Positions 917-8,411 of a stretch of 64,000 nt of DNA are shown piece after piece. This stretch comes from a bacterium (GTDB taxonomy: Bacteria; UBA8248; JACPRG01; G963555815). The DNA lies in the NCBI GenBank assembly GCA_965261595.1, contig CBDHDG010000006.1, positions 1,056,001 to 1,120,000 of the forward strand. The letters are read 5' to 3'. Position numbers and translations under genes: made by a program. Within the stretch, counting starts at the first letter, position 1; each line of letters begins with the position of its first letter. The notes beneath the pieces are model-generated. The model was not told the origin of the DNA. It ran no database searches and saw only the letters and a list, made by a program, of their open reading frames with translations.

Positions 917-3045
917 ATGACGATTCGCGCAGAAGTTGCTCAAGCGGAACTTTCGTTGGTCGAGAGGCCAGATGTCCGATGGCCTCTTCCCCCCAAGACG
1001 TCCTCATGCAGGGAGTCGGACTGGCGTTCGCTGTTCAAGCGCGAACGGGCGCGGGCGGAGGCGCGCTGCGAGGAGTTGCGGTGGGCGGAGGTGGATTCCC
1101 GCGCCCGGGCGGGTTCGCTGAAGTGGCGACTCGACGCCTGCCGGAGCAAGCTGAAGGCGGCCGTGGAGGAGACGAAGGAAGTCCGCCGAGCGGCGCAGGA
1201 CGCCCTTTCCTTGCAGGCGGAAGTGGCGCGGCTGGAGAAGCGCCTTTCGGAAGCCAGGGTCAAGTCGGCCGGGGGCCGCTCGGGCGCGTCGCCGTCGGGG
1301 GAGGCCGCCCGGCTGCGCAAGGAGGCGGTCCGGCTGACCAGGGAAGTCGCCCGGCTGGAGGACCGGCTGGCCCGGGAGACGCAGGCGTCGGAGACCGACA
1401 AGGAGACCATCAGGTGGCAGGGCCGCGAGGTCATTGGGCTCCATGCGGAGTTGAGGCGATTGCGCGACCAGGCGGAGGCGGTCAAGTCGTTGTCCGGGGA
1501 GGTCTACCGTCTGGGGGTCGCCCTGGAAGTCGCCGGATCCGCGAAGGAGCGGCTGAAGGCCCGGCTTTTGCGCGCGAGCGAGGCGGCGCGGTCGAGGTCG
1601 CCGTCGCGTGAGGACGCTGAACTGCGCAAGGCCCTGGGGAGGTCGCGCCGCCAGAAGACGGCGCTCAGGTCCCTATCCAGGGAGAACGCCCGGCTACGCA
1701 AAGCCGTGAATGCATCGCAGAGCCGGAACGAGACGCTGGAAGCGCAGCTTGCGAAGCTTCGTGCGAGCGGGGCGGTGCTGTCGAAGGCGCTGTTCGGGCG
1801 CAGGAGCGAACAGCAGGAGCGAACAGCAGGAGAGGCCGCGCTCTGAGCCGCCGGGCATGGCCGCACCCTGCGGCCCGCGCTCGAGGAGAGGACGGAAGAG
1901 CGCAATCCGCCGGCCGAGGCATGCGTCTGTGGCCGATGCGGGAAGCCCTACGTGGCCAACGGCGCCGAGGTCTCCACCATCGTCGAGATCGAAGTCTCGG
2001 CTCACAAACGCGTCATCCGCCGTCCGCGATGGCGCCGGAGGTGCGACTGCGCGTCCTCACCCACCGAAGTGTCGGCGCTCCCGGCACCGCGCCTGTTCGC
2101 AGGCACGCCCTGCGGGACCAGCGTGTGGGCGCGGTTCCTGTTCGAGCGCTATGCCTGCTTCCGTCCCCTGCGCCGGGTCGCCTCGTGGCTGTCCGCCATG
2201 GTGATGAGACTACCTGGCGCGTGCAGTCGCTTCGCGAGGAGAGCCGCTCGAGCCGGGCTTGGCTGTGGACCTCGGTCAGCGAGGACGCGGTCTACTTCCA
2301 CGTTGACCCCTCGCGCGGTGCGGAGGTCGCGAGGAAGCTGTTCGGAACGGCCGGCCTCCATACGGTCATCGTCTGCGACCGCTACAGCGCCTACAAGAAG
2401 ATGGCGCGCATTCCCGGGGGCCTGGTGACCCTCGCTTGGTGCTGGAGTCATATGCGGAGAGATTTTATCCACTGCGCGGCCGGCGAGGTGCGGCTGACGC
2501 GGTGGTGCCGGAGATGGATCGAGCGGATCGCACTGATCTATCGCCTGAACGAGGCTCGCCTGGCCCATTACGACCCCGGCCGCGACCGGCAGAGCGCGGC
2601 GTTCGACGCGGCGCAGGCCGCGCTGAAGAAAGCGCTCGACGGCCTGTTCGCGGAAGCCGGGCGGGAGTTGGCCTCCTTGCCGGAGAACGCGCGCGAGGGC
2701 AAGGCGTTGCGCTCGCTGCTGAACCATCGCGAGGGCTTGAGCGTCTTCGTCGACCGCCCGCAGACGCCGATGGACAACAACGCCGCCGAGCGCGCGCTGA
2801 GGGGACCGGTGATCGGGAGACGGCTCTCGTTCGGCTCCGACCGCGAGACCGGCGCCCGGTTCACGGCGATGATGTACTCGGTCCTCGGTACCCTCGCGCC
2901 GGGCGGCATCGACCCTCTCCGCTGGCTGGAGGCATGGCTGGCGGCATGTGCGGAGAGAGGCGGCCGGGCGCCTGAGGACCTCTCGCCGTGGCTGCCCTGG
3001 TCGATGGGCGCGGAGCGCAGGCGCGCCCTCATGGCGCCGGGATGA
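917..3045 (+). pseudogene. IS66-family transposase (TnpC-like) with a long N-terminal coiled coil; frameshifted
   Basis: Coiled coil ending LFGRRSEQQ, a Cys-containing segment, then HGDETTWRV, VCDRYSAY, CWSHMRR and PMDNNAAERALR motifs spread over three frames. A 13-bp duplication GAGCGAACAGCAG near 1804-1829 breaks the frame. Confidence 0.85.
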
Positions 3046-3049
3046 CGTC

Positions 3050-3922
3050 ATGATCGAGTGCCGCTATTACGGACGCGACTTCACCACCGAAGAGATGACG
3101 CTCCTGCGCGCGCTGATCGCCGGTCCTCCGGCGCTGAACCGCCACGCGCTCTCGAAGGAGTTCTGCCGGCGCATCGGCTGGCGCAAGCCCGACGGCGGGC
3201 TCAAGGACATGATGGCCAGGGTGACCATGCTGGCCATGCACAAAGACGGCCTGATCGCCCTGCCGCCGCCGAAGTGGCGGCAGAACCGGCCCGGGCTGAT
3301 CGTCTTCGGTCCGGAGACCGAACCACCACCGGTCCCGGCGCCGGCCACCCTGGAGGAGGTCCGCCCGCTCGACATGCAGATCGTCGTGCGCGGCACCGCC
3401 GGGGGCAAGCGGTGGAACGAGTTCGTCGCCCGTTACCACTATCTCGGCTACAGGACCCTCGTCGGCGCCCAGATGCGCTACGCCGTCCACGACCGCAACG
3501 GTTGCCCCATCGCCATGCTCGGCTTCTCCACCGCCGCGTGGAAGCTGGCCTCTCGAGACCGCTTCATCGGTTGGACGCCCGGGCTGCGCGAGAAGAACCT
3601 CCCCCTCGTGGTCGACAACCCGAGGTTCCTCATCCTGCCCTGGATCAAGATCCCCAACCTCGGTTCGCACATCCTCGCCATCGTCCGCCGTCGCCTGCCC
3701 CAGGACTGGGCCGAGCGCTACAACACCACCCCCGTGCTCATCGAAACCTTCGTCGAGACCCCCCGTTACACCGGCGCCGTCTACAGGGCATCGGGATGGA
3801 CCCACGTCGGAACCACCCAGGGACGCGGACGCTACGACAGGTACACGAGACGCGCCCAACCGAAAAAGGATATCTGGCTCCGCCCCCTCAAAAAAAATTG
3901 GAAACGAACCCTCAACAGCTAA
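3050..3922 (+). CDS. DUF4338 (DruA-like domain) protein
   Basis: Motifs RYYGRDFT, YHYLGY, GFSTAAWKLASRDRFIGW, NPRFLILPW..IPNLGSHIL and ETFVE..RYTGAVYRASGWTHVGTTQGRGR. ATG follows the transposase stop by 4 nt. Confidence 0.85.
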   Translation: MIECRYYGRDFTTEEMTLLRALIAGPPALNRHALSKEFCRRIGWRKPDGGLKDMMARVTMLAMHKDGLIALPPPKWRQNRPGLIVFGPETEPPPVPAPATLEEVRPLDMQIVVRGTAGGKRWNEFVARYHYLGYRTLVGAQMRYAVHDRNGCPIAMLGFSTAAWKLASRDRFIGWTPGLREKNLPLVVDNPRFLILPWIKIPNLGSHILAIVRRRLPQDWAERYNTTPVLIETFVETPRYTGAVYRASGWTHVGTTQGRGRYDRYTRRAQPKKDIWLRPLKKNWKRTLNS

Positions 3923-4693: not shown

Positions 4694-6091
4694 TCAGTGT
4701 TTCACGGGCCAGAAAATCTTACCGGGGTTCATGACGTTGCGGGGATCGAAGACCGCCTTGATTTGCTTTTGAAGCTCGATGATCTCGGGAGATTGCTCCA
4801 GGGGAAGAAACTCCGACTTGGTGATGCCGATGCCGTGCTCTCCCGAAAGCGTCCCATTCATCTCGACCGTCGCGACGAAGATGTCCCGGACCGCCTCCAG
4901 GGCGCTGGCCATCCGCGCGGGATCGCGTTCATCCGTCATTACATTGACGTGGAGGTTTCCGTCGCCCGCATGGCCGAAGGTGATGATCAGGTGGCCGCGC
5001 CGCTCGCCGATTTCCTGGAGCTTTCTCATCATTTCAGGGATGCGTGAGCGGGGGACGGTGATGTCTTCGTTGATTTTCGTGGGCTCGATTTGGAGGATGG
5101 CGTTGGCCAGACTGGTGCGCACCGCCATCAATGTCGCCGCTTCCTCGTCGTTTTCGGCGATGCGGATGGGATCGGCCCCCTTTTCGCGGCAGATGTCCCG
5201 AATGCGGTCGAGCTGCGGCGAAATGGATTCTCGGGGGCCGTCCACCTGGATGAGCAGGAGGGCCCGCGAATCCACCGGCAGGCCGGCGTGGAGTTGATTC
5301 TCCGCCGCCCGGATGCACTGCTGGTCCAGGAACTCCAACATCGAGGGGATGATGCGGGAGGCGATGATCCGCGAGACCGTCTCGGTGGCGGCCGCCGGGT
5401 CGGGGAAGGCCGCCGTCATCGTCCCCGTGGCTTCGGGTTTCGGGATGAGGCGCAGGGTTATCTCGGTGATGACGCCGAGGGTCCCCTCCGAGCCTACGAG
5501 GAGCTTGGTGAGGTCGTAGCCGACGACGCCCTTCATCGTCCGGACGCCCGTGCGGATGCGGCCGAAGGCCGGCGTGACGGCTTCCAATCCGATGATGTAG
5601 TCTTTCGTCACGCCGTACTTCACCCCCCGGGGTCCGCCGGCGCACATGGCCGCGTTTCCGCCCAGCGTGCATACCGCCCTGCTGGCCGGGTCCGGGGGAT
5701 AGAAGAGTCCGAGCTTCTCGACCGCGGCGTGGAACTGTCCCGTGACCACGCCGGGCTCGACAACGGCCACGAGGTTGTCCGTGTCGATTTCCTTGATCCG
5801 GTTCATCGCCGTGAGGTCGAGAACGATCCCCTTCTTCACGGGAATCGCCCCGCCCGTGGTGCTGGTCCCGGCGCCGCGCGGCGTGATGGGGACCTGATGC
5901 TCATGGGCGAGAGCGACGATGGCCTCCACCTCATCGGCGGAGATGGCCCGCACAACGACGTCCGGCACGGACTCCGCCCGCTGCGTGCCGTCCCGGGCGT
6001 ACGTGATGCGCTCCTCGAGGGCTTCGAGGACGCGGTCGGCGGGGAGGATATCCCGCAACCGGGCGGGCAGGTTTTCGGTCATCGCCATCAT
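4694..6091 (-). CDS. glcD: FAD-linked oxidase, glycolate/D-lactate oxidase subunit GlcD-like
   Basis: PRGAGTS, YPPDPAS, GGPRGVKYGVTKDY, GSEGTLG, GHAGDGNLH, SGEHGIG and NPGK motifs. Confidence 0.85.
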   Translation of the reverse strand: MMAMTENLPARLRDILPADRVLEALEERITYARDGTQRAESVPDVVVRAISADEVEAIVALAHEHQVPITPRGAGTSTTGGAIPVKKGIVLDLTAMNRIKEIDTDNLVAVVEPGVVTGQFHAAVEKLGLFYPPDPASRAVCTLGGNAAMCAGGPRGVKYGVTKDYIIGLEAVTPAFGRIRTGVRTMKGVVGYDLTKLLVGSEGTLGVITEITLRLIPKPEATGTMTAAFPDPAAATETVSRIIASRIIPSMLEFLDQQCIRAAENQLHAGLPVDSRALLLIQVDGPRESISPQLDRIRDICREKGADPIRIAENDEEAATLMAVRTSLANAILQIEPTKINEDITVPRSRIPEMMRKLQEIGERRGHLIITFGHAGDGNLHVNVMTDERDPARMASALEAVRDIFVATVEMNGTLSGEHGIGITKSEFLPLEQSPEIIELQKQIKAVFDPRNVMNPGKIFWPVKH

Positions 6092-6205
6092 CCCCCTTCC
6101 CCCCCCCTACGCTATCGCCGGATCAATGATTCAACCCGGTTGGACATGTTCGACAATTCCCTCCCCCCCCCCCCCTCTTTCAACCGGGTCCGAAATCGAC
6201 AAACC

Positions 6206-6784
6206 TCAAGCATTCCCCGGGAGATCCATCTCCTTCCCGTTGATCGTGATGACGCTTTTCAGTGGAACGGCCGTCCGGACCATACTCTCGGCGAAGCACC
6301 CGCCTTTGGCGTTTCGGACGAGGAGGCGAAGCCTCTCTTCGGGCGCGTCCGATTCAATTTCGAATCGTGTGCGGACCTGTCTGCATCCGGATTGCACGTC
6401 GCCCCGCAGGACGGAGCCGCTGCGGAAGTATTCCATCTCCACCCGCACCCGGGCGCTCCGCAACTCGATCTTCATCATGGAAGCGAACCGCTTCACTTGG
6501 GTCAGGAGTCAGGCGCCGATTCCGCCGGCGATATAGGTCAGGGGTTGCGGGTGCTTTCCCTCCCCGCCGAGGATCGGAGGCTCATCCACGTAGAACATCT
6601 GGTCTCCCCCGATCAGCTCGGGATCATCCCCGTCCGTTCCCTCGCCCGGGTATTCGTCCTCATTTTTCAGGATCTTCTGGTGACCCACGACGGTGTGGAC
6701 CAGCGTCTCGCCGGCCTCGCAGTCGGCGACGACAAAAGCCTCCAGTACATCCCGCCGCCCGCCGCGAGAGGATTTCAAAGGCAT
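6206..6784 (-). CDS. OsmC-like protein with an in-frame UGA at the catalytic Cys position (putative selenoprotein)
   Basis: ORFs 6509-6808 and 6206-6496 share a frame and are joined by TGA at 6509-6511: DEPPILGGEGKHPQPLTYIAGGIGA-U-LLTQ...AKGGCF. RBS GGAAAGGGGAG precedes ATG 6784. Confidence 0.8.
6480..6494 (-). promoter_or_regulatory. SECIS-like hairpin
   Basis: GAAGCG-GUU-CGCUUC perfect 6-bp stem starting 14 nt after the UGA, with G as the first loop base. Confidence 0.65.
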
Positions 6785-6829
6785 CCGCGCTCCCCTTTCC
6801 AAGAACAAACAGGTTTCCCGCCCGCGATC

Positions 6830-7291
6830 CTATTTGTCGAGGGCGAACTGATAGGAGGCCGAGAGGATCCGCATGATCACGTCCAACTCCGCCGCGTCCC
6901 GCGGGCCGTAGACCAGAACCGTCTGCCTCGGGCTTTGTCCTCGAATGACGTTCGGGTGCATCTCCCCCCACCCCTTGTCCAGAAGCTCCCGCACGTCTTC
7001 TTCGGGGAGCGTCATGTGCATGCTCCCGTCGTAGAGCGGGTGGATGTGGGCGAACTCCCCGCCGAACATGAAGGCCTCCTGGCGGCGGTGCGCGCTCTCT
7101 TCGCTGAGCCAGAGCGCTTCGGCGCCCGGGACGGAGAGCTCGCTGGGGCGGCGCTCGACGTGCGGCAGGGCGAACGCCTGTTCCTTCAGTTTTGCGTAGA
7201 TCTCGGCGGGCGGGTTCTGGTCGAGCTGTTCGTGCGGCTGGTCCGGGGATGTCTTGGGTTTCTCTCCGGAGCGTTGGGGCAGCTTGAGCAT
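6830..7291 (-). CDS. DUF5519 / luciferase-domain-like protein
   Basis: EFAHIHPLYDGSMHMTLP, GWGEMHP and LVYGPRD..EL motifs. Confidence 0.7.
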   Translation of the reverse strand: MLKLPQRSGEKPKTSPDQPHEQLDQNPPAEIYAKLKEQAFALPHVERRPSELSVPGAEALWLSEESAHRRQEAFMFGGEFAHIHPLYDGSMHMTLPEEDVRELLDKGWGEMHPNVIRGQSPRQTVLVYGPRDAAELDVIMRILSASYQFALDK

Positions 7292-7478
7292 CGAGACCTC
7301 TCACGGCGAGGGATGGACCATCGGCCGTCCGGTTTCTCTGATTGGCGGTTCATCGAACAGCGTAGCACAGGGGGGGGCCGCCATCGCCAAACCATTCGAG
7401 CGCGGGCGGATGGACCGTCTTCAAGGGCCTTCCCGAGTCAACCGGTCCGTGGGCGAAGGATGTCCCCTGAAGATTCTC

Positions 7479-7907
7479 CTAAATCCGTCCCAGCCATACG
7501 CCCAGGAAGAAAACGATGGCGATCAGGTGGATGTTGATGACCATCCAGCGTTTCCGGTTCTGTCTCATCGATTCCAGCGCCTTGACGGGCGCCAGGACGC
7601 CGAAGGCGATGAAGAAGATCCCCAGCGCGAGAATGACCTTGATCCCCAGGATGGAGTGATAGAGCGGCCGGGGGACGCCGGCTCCGGTGACCACAACGAG
7701 CATCCAGATGCCCGTCAGGACGAGCAGGGCGATGACTATCCAGATCATCCGGCCGAACCGGGGGATGACCCCGCCCATCAGCTTTTCGGCCGCCTCGGGG
7801 TCGATTCCCCCCATGGAGGGCATGAGCGCCCAGAGGGCGAACGCAACCCCGCCCATCACGATCCCCGCGGATGCGACGTGAAGAAACTTGATGATGACAA
7901 AATCCAC
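7479..7907 (-). CDS. Small multi-pass membrane protein (CopD/DUF2269-like)
   Basis: GGAGG RBS before GTG 7907, four hydrophobic segments, and a FLHVASAGIVMGG start. Confidence 0.65.
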   Translation of the reverse strand: MDFVIIKFLHVASAGIVMGGVAFALWALMPSMGGIDPEAAEKLMGGVIPRFGRMIWIVIALLVLTGIWMLVVVTGAGVPRPLYHSILGIKVILALGIFFIAFGVLAPVKALESMRQNRKRWMVINIHLIAIVFFLGVWLGRI

Positions 7908-8114
7908 GAGCCATCCTCCCCACTTCTGTGAATTCCAAGGCGCCTCTTTTGCCGAGGCGGCCGGGCGCCAAGCGTTTCCCGTCGCCGTCCACCAGTCTAA
8001 CAGGCCGCGCCCAATCGCGAAACGCGGGGCGGAAGCGGGTCGTGCCCTCATTTGAAACTTTCTGTTAAAGTTGCCTCAGAGATAGCGACTCCACAAAACG
8101 GGGGAGGAAACACA

Positions 8115-8411
8115 ATAGCGGAAGAACGGAAAAAACAGTACGGGCAGTTAATCGCCAAGGCGTGGACAGACGAGGAGTTCGAGGCCAGGCTCAAAGCCGA
8201 TCCCAAGGCCGCGTTGAAGGAAGTGGGGATCGATGTTCCTGAGGGCCATGCGGTTCATGTACACGAAGCGGCCTCGGATGAGCACCACCTGGTCATACCC
8301 CCCAAACCCGCCGGTGAGCTCTCGGACGAGGACCTGGATAAGATGGCGGGGGGAGCGGCGGCTTACGACCGCCTTCAGCGATTGCCCTGCGGACCGTTTT
8401 ATTTCAAATGA
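8115..8411 (+). CDS. NHLP (nitrile hydratase leader peptide) RiPP precursor; start codon reads ATA
   Basis: LIAKAWTDEEFEARLKADPKAAL...HLVIPPKPAGELSDEDLDKMAGG leader followed by core AAAYDRLQRLPCGPFYFK. GGAGG RBS lies 7 nt upstream of ATA 8115. Confidence 0.8.
   Translation: MAEERKKQYGQLIAKAWTDEEFEARLKADPKAALKEVGIDVPEGHAVHVHEAASDEHHLVIPPKPAGELSDEDLDKMAGGAAAYDRLQRLPCGPFYFK

Follow-up and report, generated by a model that had tools for sequence, protein, structure and literature searches.

The window, a stretch of 64,000 nucleotides (positions 1,056,001 to 1,120,000 of contig CBDHDG010000006.1 in the bacterial assembly GCA_965261595.1), carries on its minus strand two short open reading frames, 6509..6808 (99 aa) and 6206..6496 (96 aa), that share a phase and are separated by one TGA. 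Translation of 6808-6206 with TGA read as U is unbroken, U appearing at the internal and the terminal TGA only. From the ATG at 6784 to the stop TGA at 6208-6206 this makes one frame of 192 codons with a single internal TGA, codon 92, at 6511-6509. The read-through peptide around this codon is PQPLTYIAGGIGA-U-LLTQ, and a second cysteine, Cys163, is encoded at 6298-6296 within an AKGGCF motif. GGGGAG can be read 5 nt upstream of ATG 6784. A first-pass annotation made from the sequence alone had described two same-frame ORFs joined by one TGA, the LLTQ that follows it and the AKGGCF cysteine, all of which are present on the minus strand, and had anticipated that gene callers would split the gene. 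The public gene call on record for the locus, with 16 cluster members, does begin at ATG 6784 and end at the internal TGA, giving a protein of 91 aa. The features of the locus and its neighbors are collected in Table 1.

Table 1. Features of the OsmC-like selenoprotein locus and neighboring genes (positions within the window).
Feature	Position	Strand	Basis or remark
OsmC-like selenoprotein CDS, Sec predicted at codon 92	6206..6784	-	Read-through translation; NF041052; Pfam OsmC match across the TGA
Purine-rich Shine-Dalgarno-like stretch (GGAAAGGGGAG region), 5 nt 5' of ATG 6784	6790..6799	-	Read from sequence; the 91-aa public call starts at ATG 6784
UGA predicted to be read as Sec92, first residue of U-L-L-T (UxxT)	6509..6511	-	Sec/Cys column invariant in alignment A1; TGA in relatives; independent contigs agree
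Putative SECIS-type stem-loop	6476..6499	-	Hairpin present in fold; family covariation; stem counts in Sec versus Cys forms
Cys163 codon (AKGGCF), second invariant Cys, putative resolving residue	6296..6298	-	Invariant in A1; aligns with second Cys of 3cje (KKGCF)
Luciferase-domain protein, 153 aa, directly upstream	6830-7291	-	Pfam PF17648 'Luciferase domain', E = 2.5e-22
CopD-like membrane protein	7479-8051	-	Neighbor
GlcD-like FAD oxidase, downstream	4694-6091	-	Neighbor
IS66-family transposase ORF	1921-3045	+	E = 2.7e-43; about 2-4 kb from the selenoprotein gene
ORF matching Druantia protein DruA, overlapping the IS66 ORF	2948-3922	+	E = 3.7e-36; likewise about 2-4 kb from the selenoprotein gene

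No sigma-70-like promoter was found within 5900-8300, and one weak terminator-like site (6825-6809, minus strand) lies between the luciferase-domain gene and the selenoprotein gene. We searched the loci of relatives (L023 onward except L025) for the same neighbors. Among these loci the downstream GlcD-like gene was kept only at L061 (70% identical, the closest ortholog locus), and no luciferase-domain or CopD-like neighbor was present within their 1.5-kb flanks. Because the neighbors are not kept at the relatives' loci, we do not claim an operon.

The read-through protein matches the NCBIfam model NF041052 "OsmC-related (seleno)protein" with 145.6 bits (E = 9.6e-43; curated cut-off 95), and a six-frame search of the genome with this model gave 137 bits at the window locus with one TGA inside the match. 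Pfam OsmC (PF02566) scores 53.3 bits (gathering threshold 27.5, E = 4e-14) over residues 82-184 and spans the TGA, and the UxxT motif is present as U-L-L-T. These matches to the read-through product agree with the earlier proposal of a single 192-aa, Sec-containing redox protein. The model for Ohr proper, NF052637, reached 21.3 bits against a cut-off of 240, which places the protein outside Ohr, and no other Ohr or OsmC equivalog model was matched at E <= 0.1 in the NCBIfam search of the read-through protein.

An alignment of 12 family members (A1) was used as a profile, and its best match in the PDB was 3cje, 'OsmC-like protein' (7.3e-17). AlphaFold2 modeling of the window protein gave a pLDDT of 78 and a pTM of 0.74, with low confidence in residues 1-10 and 43-57; the latter segment is an acidic insertion (pLDDT below 50) that within A1 is common only to the paralogs L026 and L027. 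Foldseek likewise placed 3cje at the top (E = 3.3e-9, TM to target 0.76), ahead of 1lql, 6mjn, 2onf and then further OsmC/Ohr entries, with 62 matches at E <= 0.001. The best match in both sequence and fold is 3cje (Jann_2040 from Jannaschia sp. CCS1), in which both Cys columns align (G-C-V-M-T-Q and K-K-G-C-F); it differs from the window protein in having Cys in place of Sec, in being shorter (167 aa) and in lacking the N-terminal insertion. The fold is also common to the Ohr/OsmC hydroperoxide reductases 6mjn, 1n2f and 1qwi.

In the predicted model, helix 81-103 contains residue 92, and residue 163 falls in the gap that separates helix 149-162 from helix 164-172. The two redox cysteines of the OsmC superfamily are placed in the same way, one on a long helix and the other in the helical C-terminal region. 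No sequence in A1 departs from Sec or Cys at column 92 or from Cys at column 163. Sec92 aligned to the first Cys of 2opl, 3cje, 2onf, 9wo1 and Ohr 6mjn, and Cys163 to the second Cys of 3cje. The first-pass annotation had placed the UGA at the catalytic Cys of OsmC/Ohr proteins, and the position is indeed the first conserved Cys column in A1, in 3cje and in the structure alignments.

The reading of codon 92 as TGA was compared with assembled contigs from other sequencing runs, a comparison in which rare variants would escape. Contigs of the runs X3, X7 and X10, which belong to three further DNA studies, are identical to the window at 6509-6511, and a 222-nt contig (6387-6608) of the run X15, an RNA library (metatranscriptome) that may itself contain DNA, has the same TGA. 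These contigs are not copies of the window assembly, because they differ from it at 6284, 6598 and 6806. The possibility that a TGC or TGT was missequenced or misassembled as TGA, a concern raised in the first-pass annotation, has nothing direct in its favor; a homopolymer at 6162-6178, about 340 nt away, does vary between assemblies. Against it stand the agreement of independent contigs at precisely this codon while they differ elsewhere and the conservation of the TGA throughout the family (below), and we assign an error next to no likelihood.

The same comparison revealed variation within the gene. At 6598, all four of the other runs compared carry C for T, which, as we read the frame, changes Met63 to Val, and at 6284 the three DNA runs carry G for A, which on the same reading is synonymous in Ser167; both are strain variation. 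Two plus-strand C runs (G runs on the gene strand), at 6093-6108 and 6162-6178, lie in the 115-nt spacer toward the GlcD-like gene. Other assemblies are longer by one C or shorter by one base at 6162/6163, where several contigs also terminate; this site is either a variable homopolymer or one prone to assembly problems.

We examined which residue relatives carry at the column of Sec92. A length-restricted database search returned only 3 full-length homologs among 205 candidates, and all three have Cys at this column, in the context G-F-C-L-L-T-Q. Full-length homologs are few because, as six-frame searches show, nearly all relatives have a TGA here and are cut by gene callers. In the window genome, five loci exceed the NF041052 cut-off and each contains one in-frame TGA at the same column; of five further OsmC-type matches below threshold, two also contain one TGA at that column. 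Six-frame searching found the family in 48 of 51 genomes of the window phylum. All 150 matches listed for the phylum are marked '1 TGA', and there are 27 more beyond those listed. The aligned Sec-form rows from the window genome and phylum have TGA at the column in 37 of 37 cases, as do all 81 rows (77 of 80 loci) from named genomes of other lineages, where the loci L072, L106 and L136 gave no row under the row filter. Record titles of the named set include Nitrospinota, Dehalococcoidia/SAR202, Tectomicrobia, Betaproteobacteria/Burkholderiales, Dormibacterales and Streptosporangiales.

Overall, TGA occupies the Sec92 column in 118 of 118 extracted relatives from several phyla; the phylum and named sets overlap, and the 118 rows reduce to 86 distinct 45-nt sequences. 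Comparison of homologs at this column, suggested in the first-pass annotation as a check, thus yielded Cys in the three database homologs and in Cys-form metagenome rows (below) and TGA in the 118 relatives. Judged by these alignments, fixation of Sec at this column would be close to complete in the several phyla covered, which is mildly unusual. The Cys form was found in none of the 118 extracted relatives and in none of the 150 listed phylum matches, and in the lineage of the window the family looks obligately selenium-dependent and expanded.

The hairpin GAAGCG-GUU-CGCUUC reported in the first-pass annotation, with a loop 20 nt after the UGA, is present exactly as described. It lies at 6494-6480 on the minus strand, with an upper stem of 6 bp (6494-6489 with 6485-6480), a GUU loop (6488-6486) and 20 nt from the UGA to the first loop base; counted from the U of UGA, the outer pairs C13-G36, A14-U35 and G16-C33 may also form. 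The available text of a 2026 review and inventory (PMC13188914) describes bacterial SECIS elements as having 3-9 nt in the apical loop and 4-16 bp in the upper stem, with a G among the first two loop bases that as a rule precedes a G or U, and sets an energy threshold of -7.5 kcal/mol. Set against the constraints stated there and in the legend of its Fig. 2, the window hairpin fits four of five (loop of 3 nt, stem of 6 bp, G-U at the start of the loop and 20-nt spacing), and its energy falls just short: the 24-nt hairpin folds at -6.8 kcal/mol, where the family median is -8.5. The standing of the hairpin against this threshold varies with the stretch folded, from -6.8 kcal/mol for 24 nt to -23.1 kcal/mol for 71 nt.

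Taken by itself, the window hairpin is not beyond chance. The 71-nt fold includes it with a z score of -1.33, and 19 of 200 shuffled sequences folded at least as well. Of 5000 synonymous recodings of the peptide, 8.4% equaled or surpassed the fold of the 24-nt stretch and 14.2% equaled or surpassed its stem length. When the 60 nt following the UGA were folded, a different structure without the hairpin was preferred. A search of the window with Rfam at gathering thresholds gave no match, and no curated RNA family covers the hairpin. Because the single-sequence tests miss significance, we do not rest the case for a SECIS element on them.

These chance-level values, together with the public 91-aa gene call and its 16 cluster members, are what could be cited for a pseudogene, in which the TGA would be a nonsense mutation leaving a 91-residue fragment or nothing functional. 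Against this, the codon is TGA in all 118 extracted relatives from several phyla and in five paralogs of this genome; the region after the TGA is open and conserved at the protein level, its Cys163 is invariant, and both the Pfam and the NCBIfam matches run across the TGA. We therefore consider a pseudogene highly improbable, and take the frame to be an intact gene read through its UGA.

The stronger evidence on the hairpin comes from the family. The 86 distinct Sec forms align without gaps, and the hairpin has an identical register in all of them. The loop bases G24 and U25 are invariant (86 of 86), the loop reading GUA in 82, GUU in 3 and GUG in 1, and the stem has 6 of 6 pairs formed in 57 sequences, 5 of 6 in 27 and 4 of 6 in 2. 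Five of nine pairs change on both sides; such changes affect pair 18-32 in 33, pair 19-31 in 15 and pair 20-30 in 36 of the 86 forms. The covariation score of 0.284 compares with a mean of 0.088 for shuffled alignments and was reached in none of 500 shuffles, and registers slid along the alignment scored 0.086 or less. The compensatory changes in the stem coincide with amino-acid changes (K...S versus A...H), and protein-level co-variation as their source is not formally excluded.

For comparison we assembled Cys forms by searching metagenome contigs with an alignment of three Cys forms, which gave 46 loci, 11 of them without a row under the filter. The resulting 35 rows have TGT or TGC at the column, and 31 of the 35 come from a subfamily further removed from the query, with which they share 26-35% identity. 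They form 2, 3, 4 and 5 of the 6 pairs in 8, 12, 14 and 1 rows, respectively, and none has 6 of 6 in the same register, even where the peptide R-Y-A is kept. A search of metagenome contigs with the single Cys form P0004 as query confirmed no relative. The family covariation, the stem counts and the weaker pairing in Cys forms speak for the SECIS-type hairpin 3' of the UGA that had been proposed at the outset; as judged from these alignments, the stem-loop is conserved, covarying and specific to UGA forms.

The machinery for Sec insertion, whose presence in the genome the first-pass annotation had named as a check, is complete for the four components sought. On contig C6, the window's own contig, selA is matched at 550.5 bits and selB, next to it, at 389.9 bits; the two matches are over their cut-offs and contain no internal stop. 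This contig also carries a single tRNA-Sec (72.1 bits, over cut-off), which ARAGORN calls SeC with anticodon tca. Since all three are on the contig of the window, contamination is ruled out as their source. A selD match (329.9 bits, over cut-off) is located on contig C5 and contains one in-frame TGA.

Two side observations concern these searches. The selD match (L010, G000:C5:89297-90265, minus strand; G000 denotes the window genome) has its own in-frame TGA, and the selenophosphate synthetase of this genome is thus probably itself a selenoprotein. The remaining matches to the tRNA-Sec model were Ser, Leu and one long-arm Ile-anticodon tRNA. At L020:1502-1596 (G000:C6:63140-63233) there is a tRNA of 93-95 nt with a long variable arm and anticodon UAU, called tRNA-Ile(tat) by ARAGORN. 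Compared with the general tRNA model it has 21 inserted nucleotides, and it scores 54.2 bits with the Rfam tRNA model and 39.4 bits with that for tRNA-Sec. An Ile anticodon is unusual in a tRNA of class-II shape.

Could the UGA be read as Trp, Cys or Gly, or be reassigned altogether, with no involvement of selenium? Such a reading would keep the frame open equally well. General reassignment of UGA is made unlikely by the selA and selB matches, which contain no internal stop, and the gene itself ends in TGA. A dedicated tRNA-Sec is present alongside selA, selB and selD, the G-U-loop hairpin covaries, sits at a fixed distance from the UGA and is specific to TGA forms, and homologs that lack Sec at this position have Cys, its usual counterpart. 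On this evidence, read-through independent of selenium is very unlikely.

We consider it very likely that the two short frames together form a single gene encoding a small OsmC-type redox enzyme in which the catalytic Cys is replaced by a UGA-encoded Sec, insertion of Sec being a prediction from sequence. Decoding would proceed as follows. The stem-loop that begins 14 nt after the UGA would recruit SelB with its bound Sec-tRNA(Sec), and UGA codon 92 would be decoded as selenocysteine; the G-U at the start of the small apical loop, 20 nt past the UGA, would favor insertion of Sec over termination. The second UGA (6208-6206), which has no such element, would act as the stop codon.

The OsmC/Ohr two-cysteine mechanism is the model for the chemistry that we propose. 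Sec92, at the column of the first OsmC/Ohr Cys, would be the peroxidatic position and Cys163 the resolving position. The selenolate would attack a hydroperoxide or another oxidized substrate to give a selenenic acid; Cys163 would trap this species as a selenenylsulfide, and a thiol reductant would complete the cycle. This peroxidase-type chemistry is inferred by analogy.

The protein may instead be a true selenoprotein of another kind, a thiol/selenol oxidoreductase of different specificity such as a disulfide or persulfide reductase. The label of COG1765, 'predicted redox protein', leaves specificity open, and the protein is far from the Ohr model (21.3 versus 240 bits). In a pairwise alignment, the Glu ten residues before the Cys of Ohr 6mjn, which we take to be catalytic in Ohr, aligns with Pro81 of the window protein. 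The neighboring genes (luciferase-domain, CopD-like and GlcD-like) include no peroxide regulon. On the other side, the two-Cys geometry of OsmC/Ohr proteins is kept, and the entry title of the nearest solved structure, 3cje, which is a structural-genomics annotation, names an OsmC-like hydroperoxide resistance protein. Weighing these points, we regard a non-peroxidase specificity as possible though somewhat unlikely, and retain peroxidase-type chemistry as the working model for Sec92.

The family itself is known. An OsmC-like selenoprotein family (COG1765) with a UxxT motif, listed in Table 3, and a predicted SECIS element was described from the Sargasso Sea by Zhang, Fomenko and Gladyshev in 2005 (PMC1088965), and an OsmC-like selenoprotein was counted in a study of Olavius symbionts (PMC1976440). 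Table 1 of the 2026 review and inventory lists PF02566 with UxxT as 'Predicted with high confidence' and not as 'Experimentally verified' (PMC13188914). We found no report of experimental Sec insertion in OsmC-like selenoproteins in the titles and abstracts returned by full-text literature searches. As far as the published family is set out in the available parts of PMC1088965 and in NF041052, the window protein shares with it a match above cut-off, the UxxT motif, Sec at the first Cys column and a small stem-loop with a loop guanosine after the UGA. Nothing essential differs: the window protein adds the acidic insertion 43-57, its loop reads GUU where 82 of 86 forms have GUA, and its genome holds five family paralogs, the window gene included.

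The interpretation given in the first-pass annotation is borne out by each of its proposed checks that the analysis covered. The novelty implied by the word 'hidden' does not hold, given the curated NF041052 model, the 2005 publication (PMC1088965) and the listing in the tabulated part of PMC13188914. The window gene is very probably a true selenoprotein gene that public gene calling has cut short, and its family is known and curated. The finding is an ordinary one, because such selenoproteins have been predicted since 2005, as the available text of PMC1088965 documents, and with the family, its UxxT motif and SECIS predicted then and a curated NCBI model in existence, it opens no new question. 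Its main value lies in annotation: the public call stops at the UGA, with the result that the active half of the protein and its dependence on selenium are lost from databases, and at least four further paralogs of the window genome are affected likewise. The near-complete fixation of Sec at the column and the multiplication of the family in the window phylum, where 48 of 51 genomes have it, are the modest points that remain.

The four further NF041052 paralogs of the window genome are L023 (G000:C7:962751-963188), L024 (C5:439008-439427), L026 (C5:635613-636032) and L027 (C4:731241-731609). In each of them the TGA stands at the same column, and the hairpin after it keeps the register but differs in the sequence of its stem; L027 has ACF in place of GCF. 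Among relatives, Sec-containing family genes occur as tandem pairs approximately 600-740 nt apart, at L031 (1261, 1867), L033 (1656, 2244), L098 (1716, 2329) and L120 (99, 838), and one genome of the window phylum (G048) contains 11 family matches. We speculate, with considerable doubt, that the paralogs might constitute a battery of substrate-specialized, selenium-requiring detoxification enzymes in which Cys is unable to replace Sec; were this true, these bacteria would be unusually dependent on their selenium supply.

Two distant OsmC-type ORFs of the window genome, L029 (G000:C6:216630-217043) and G000:C4:650871-651251, also have a TGA at the column of the first Cys. They score 56 and 39.2 bits, respectively, under the NF041052 cut-off, and carry a C-P-type second Cys motif. 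By eye, a 7-bp hairpin follows in both, with a G-first loop 17 nt after the TGA. From these sequence features, the two ORFs are probably additional selenoproteins of another OsmC subfamily.
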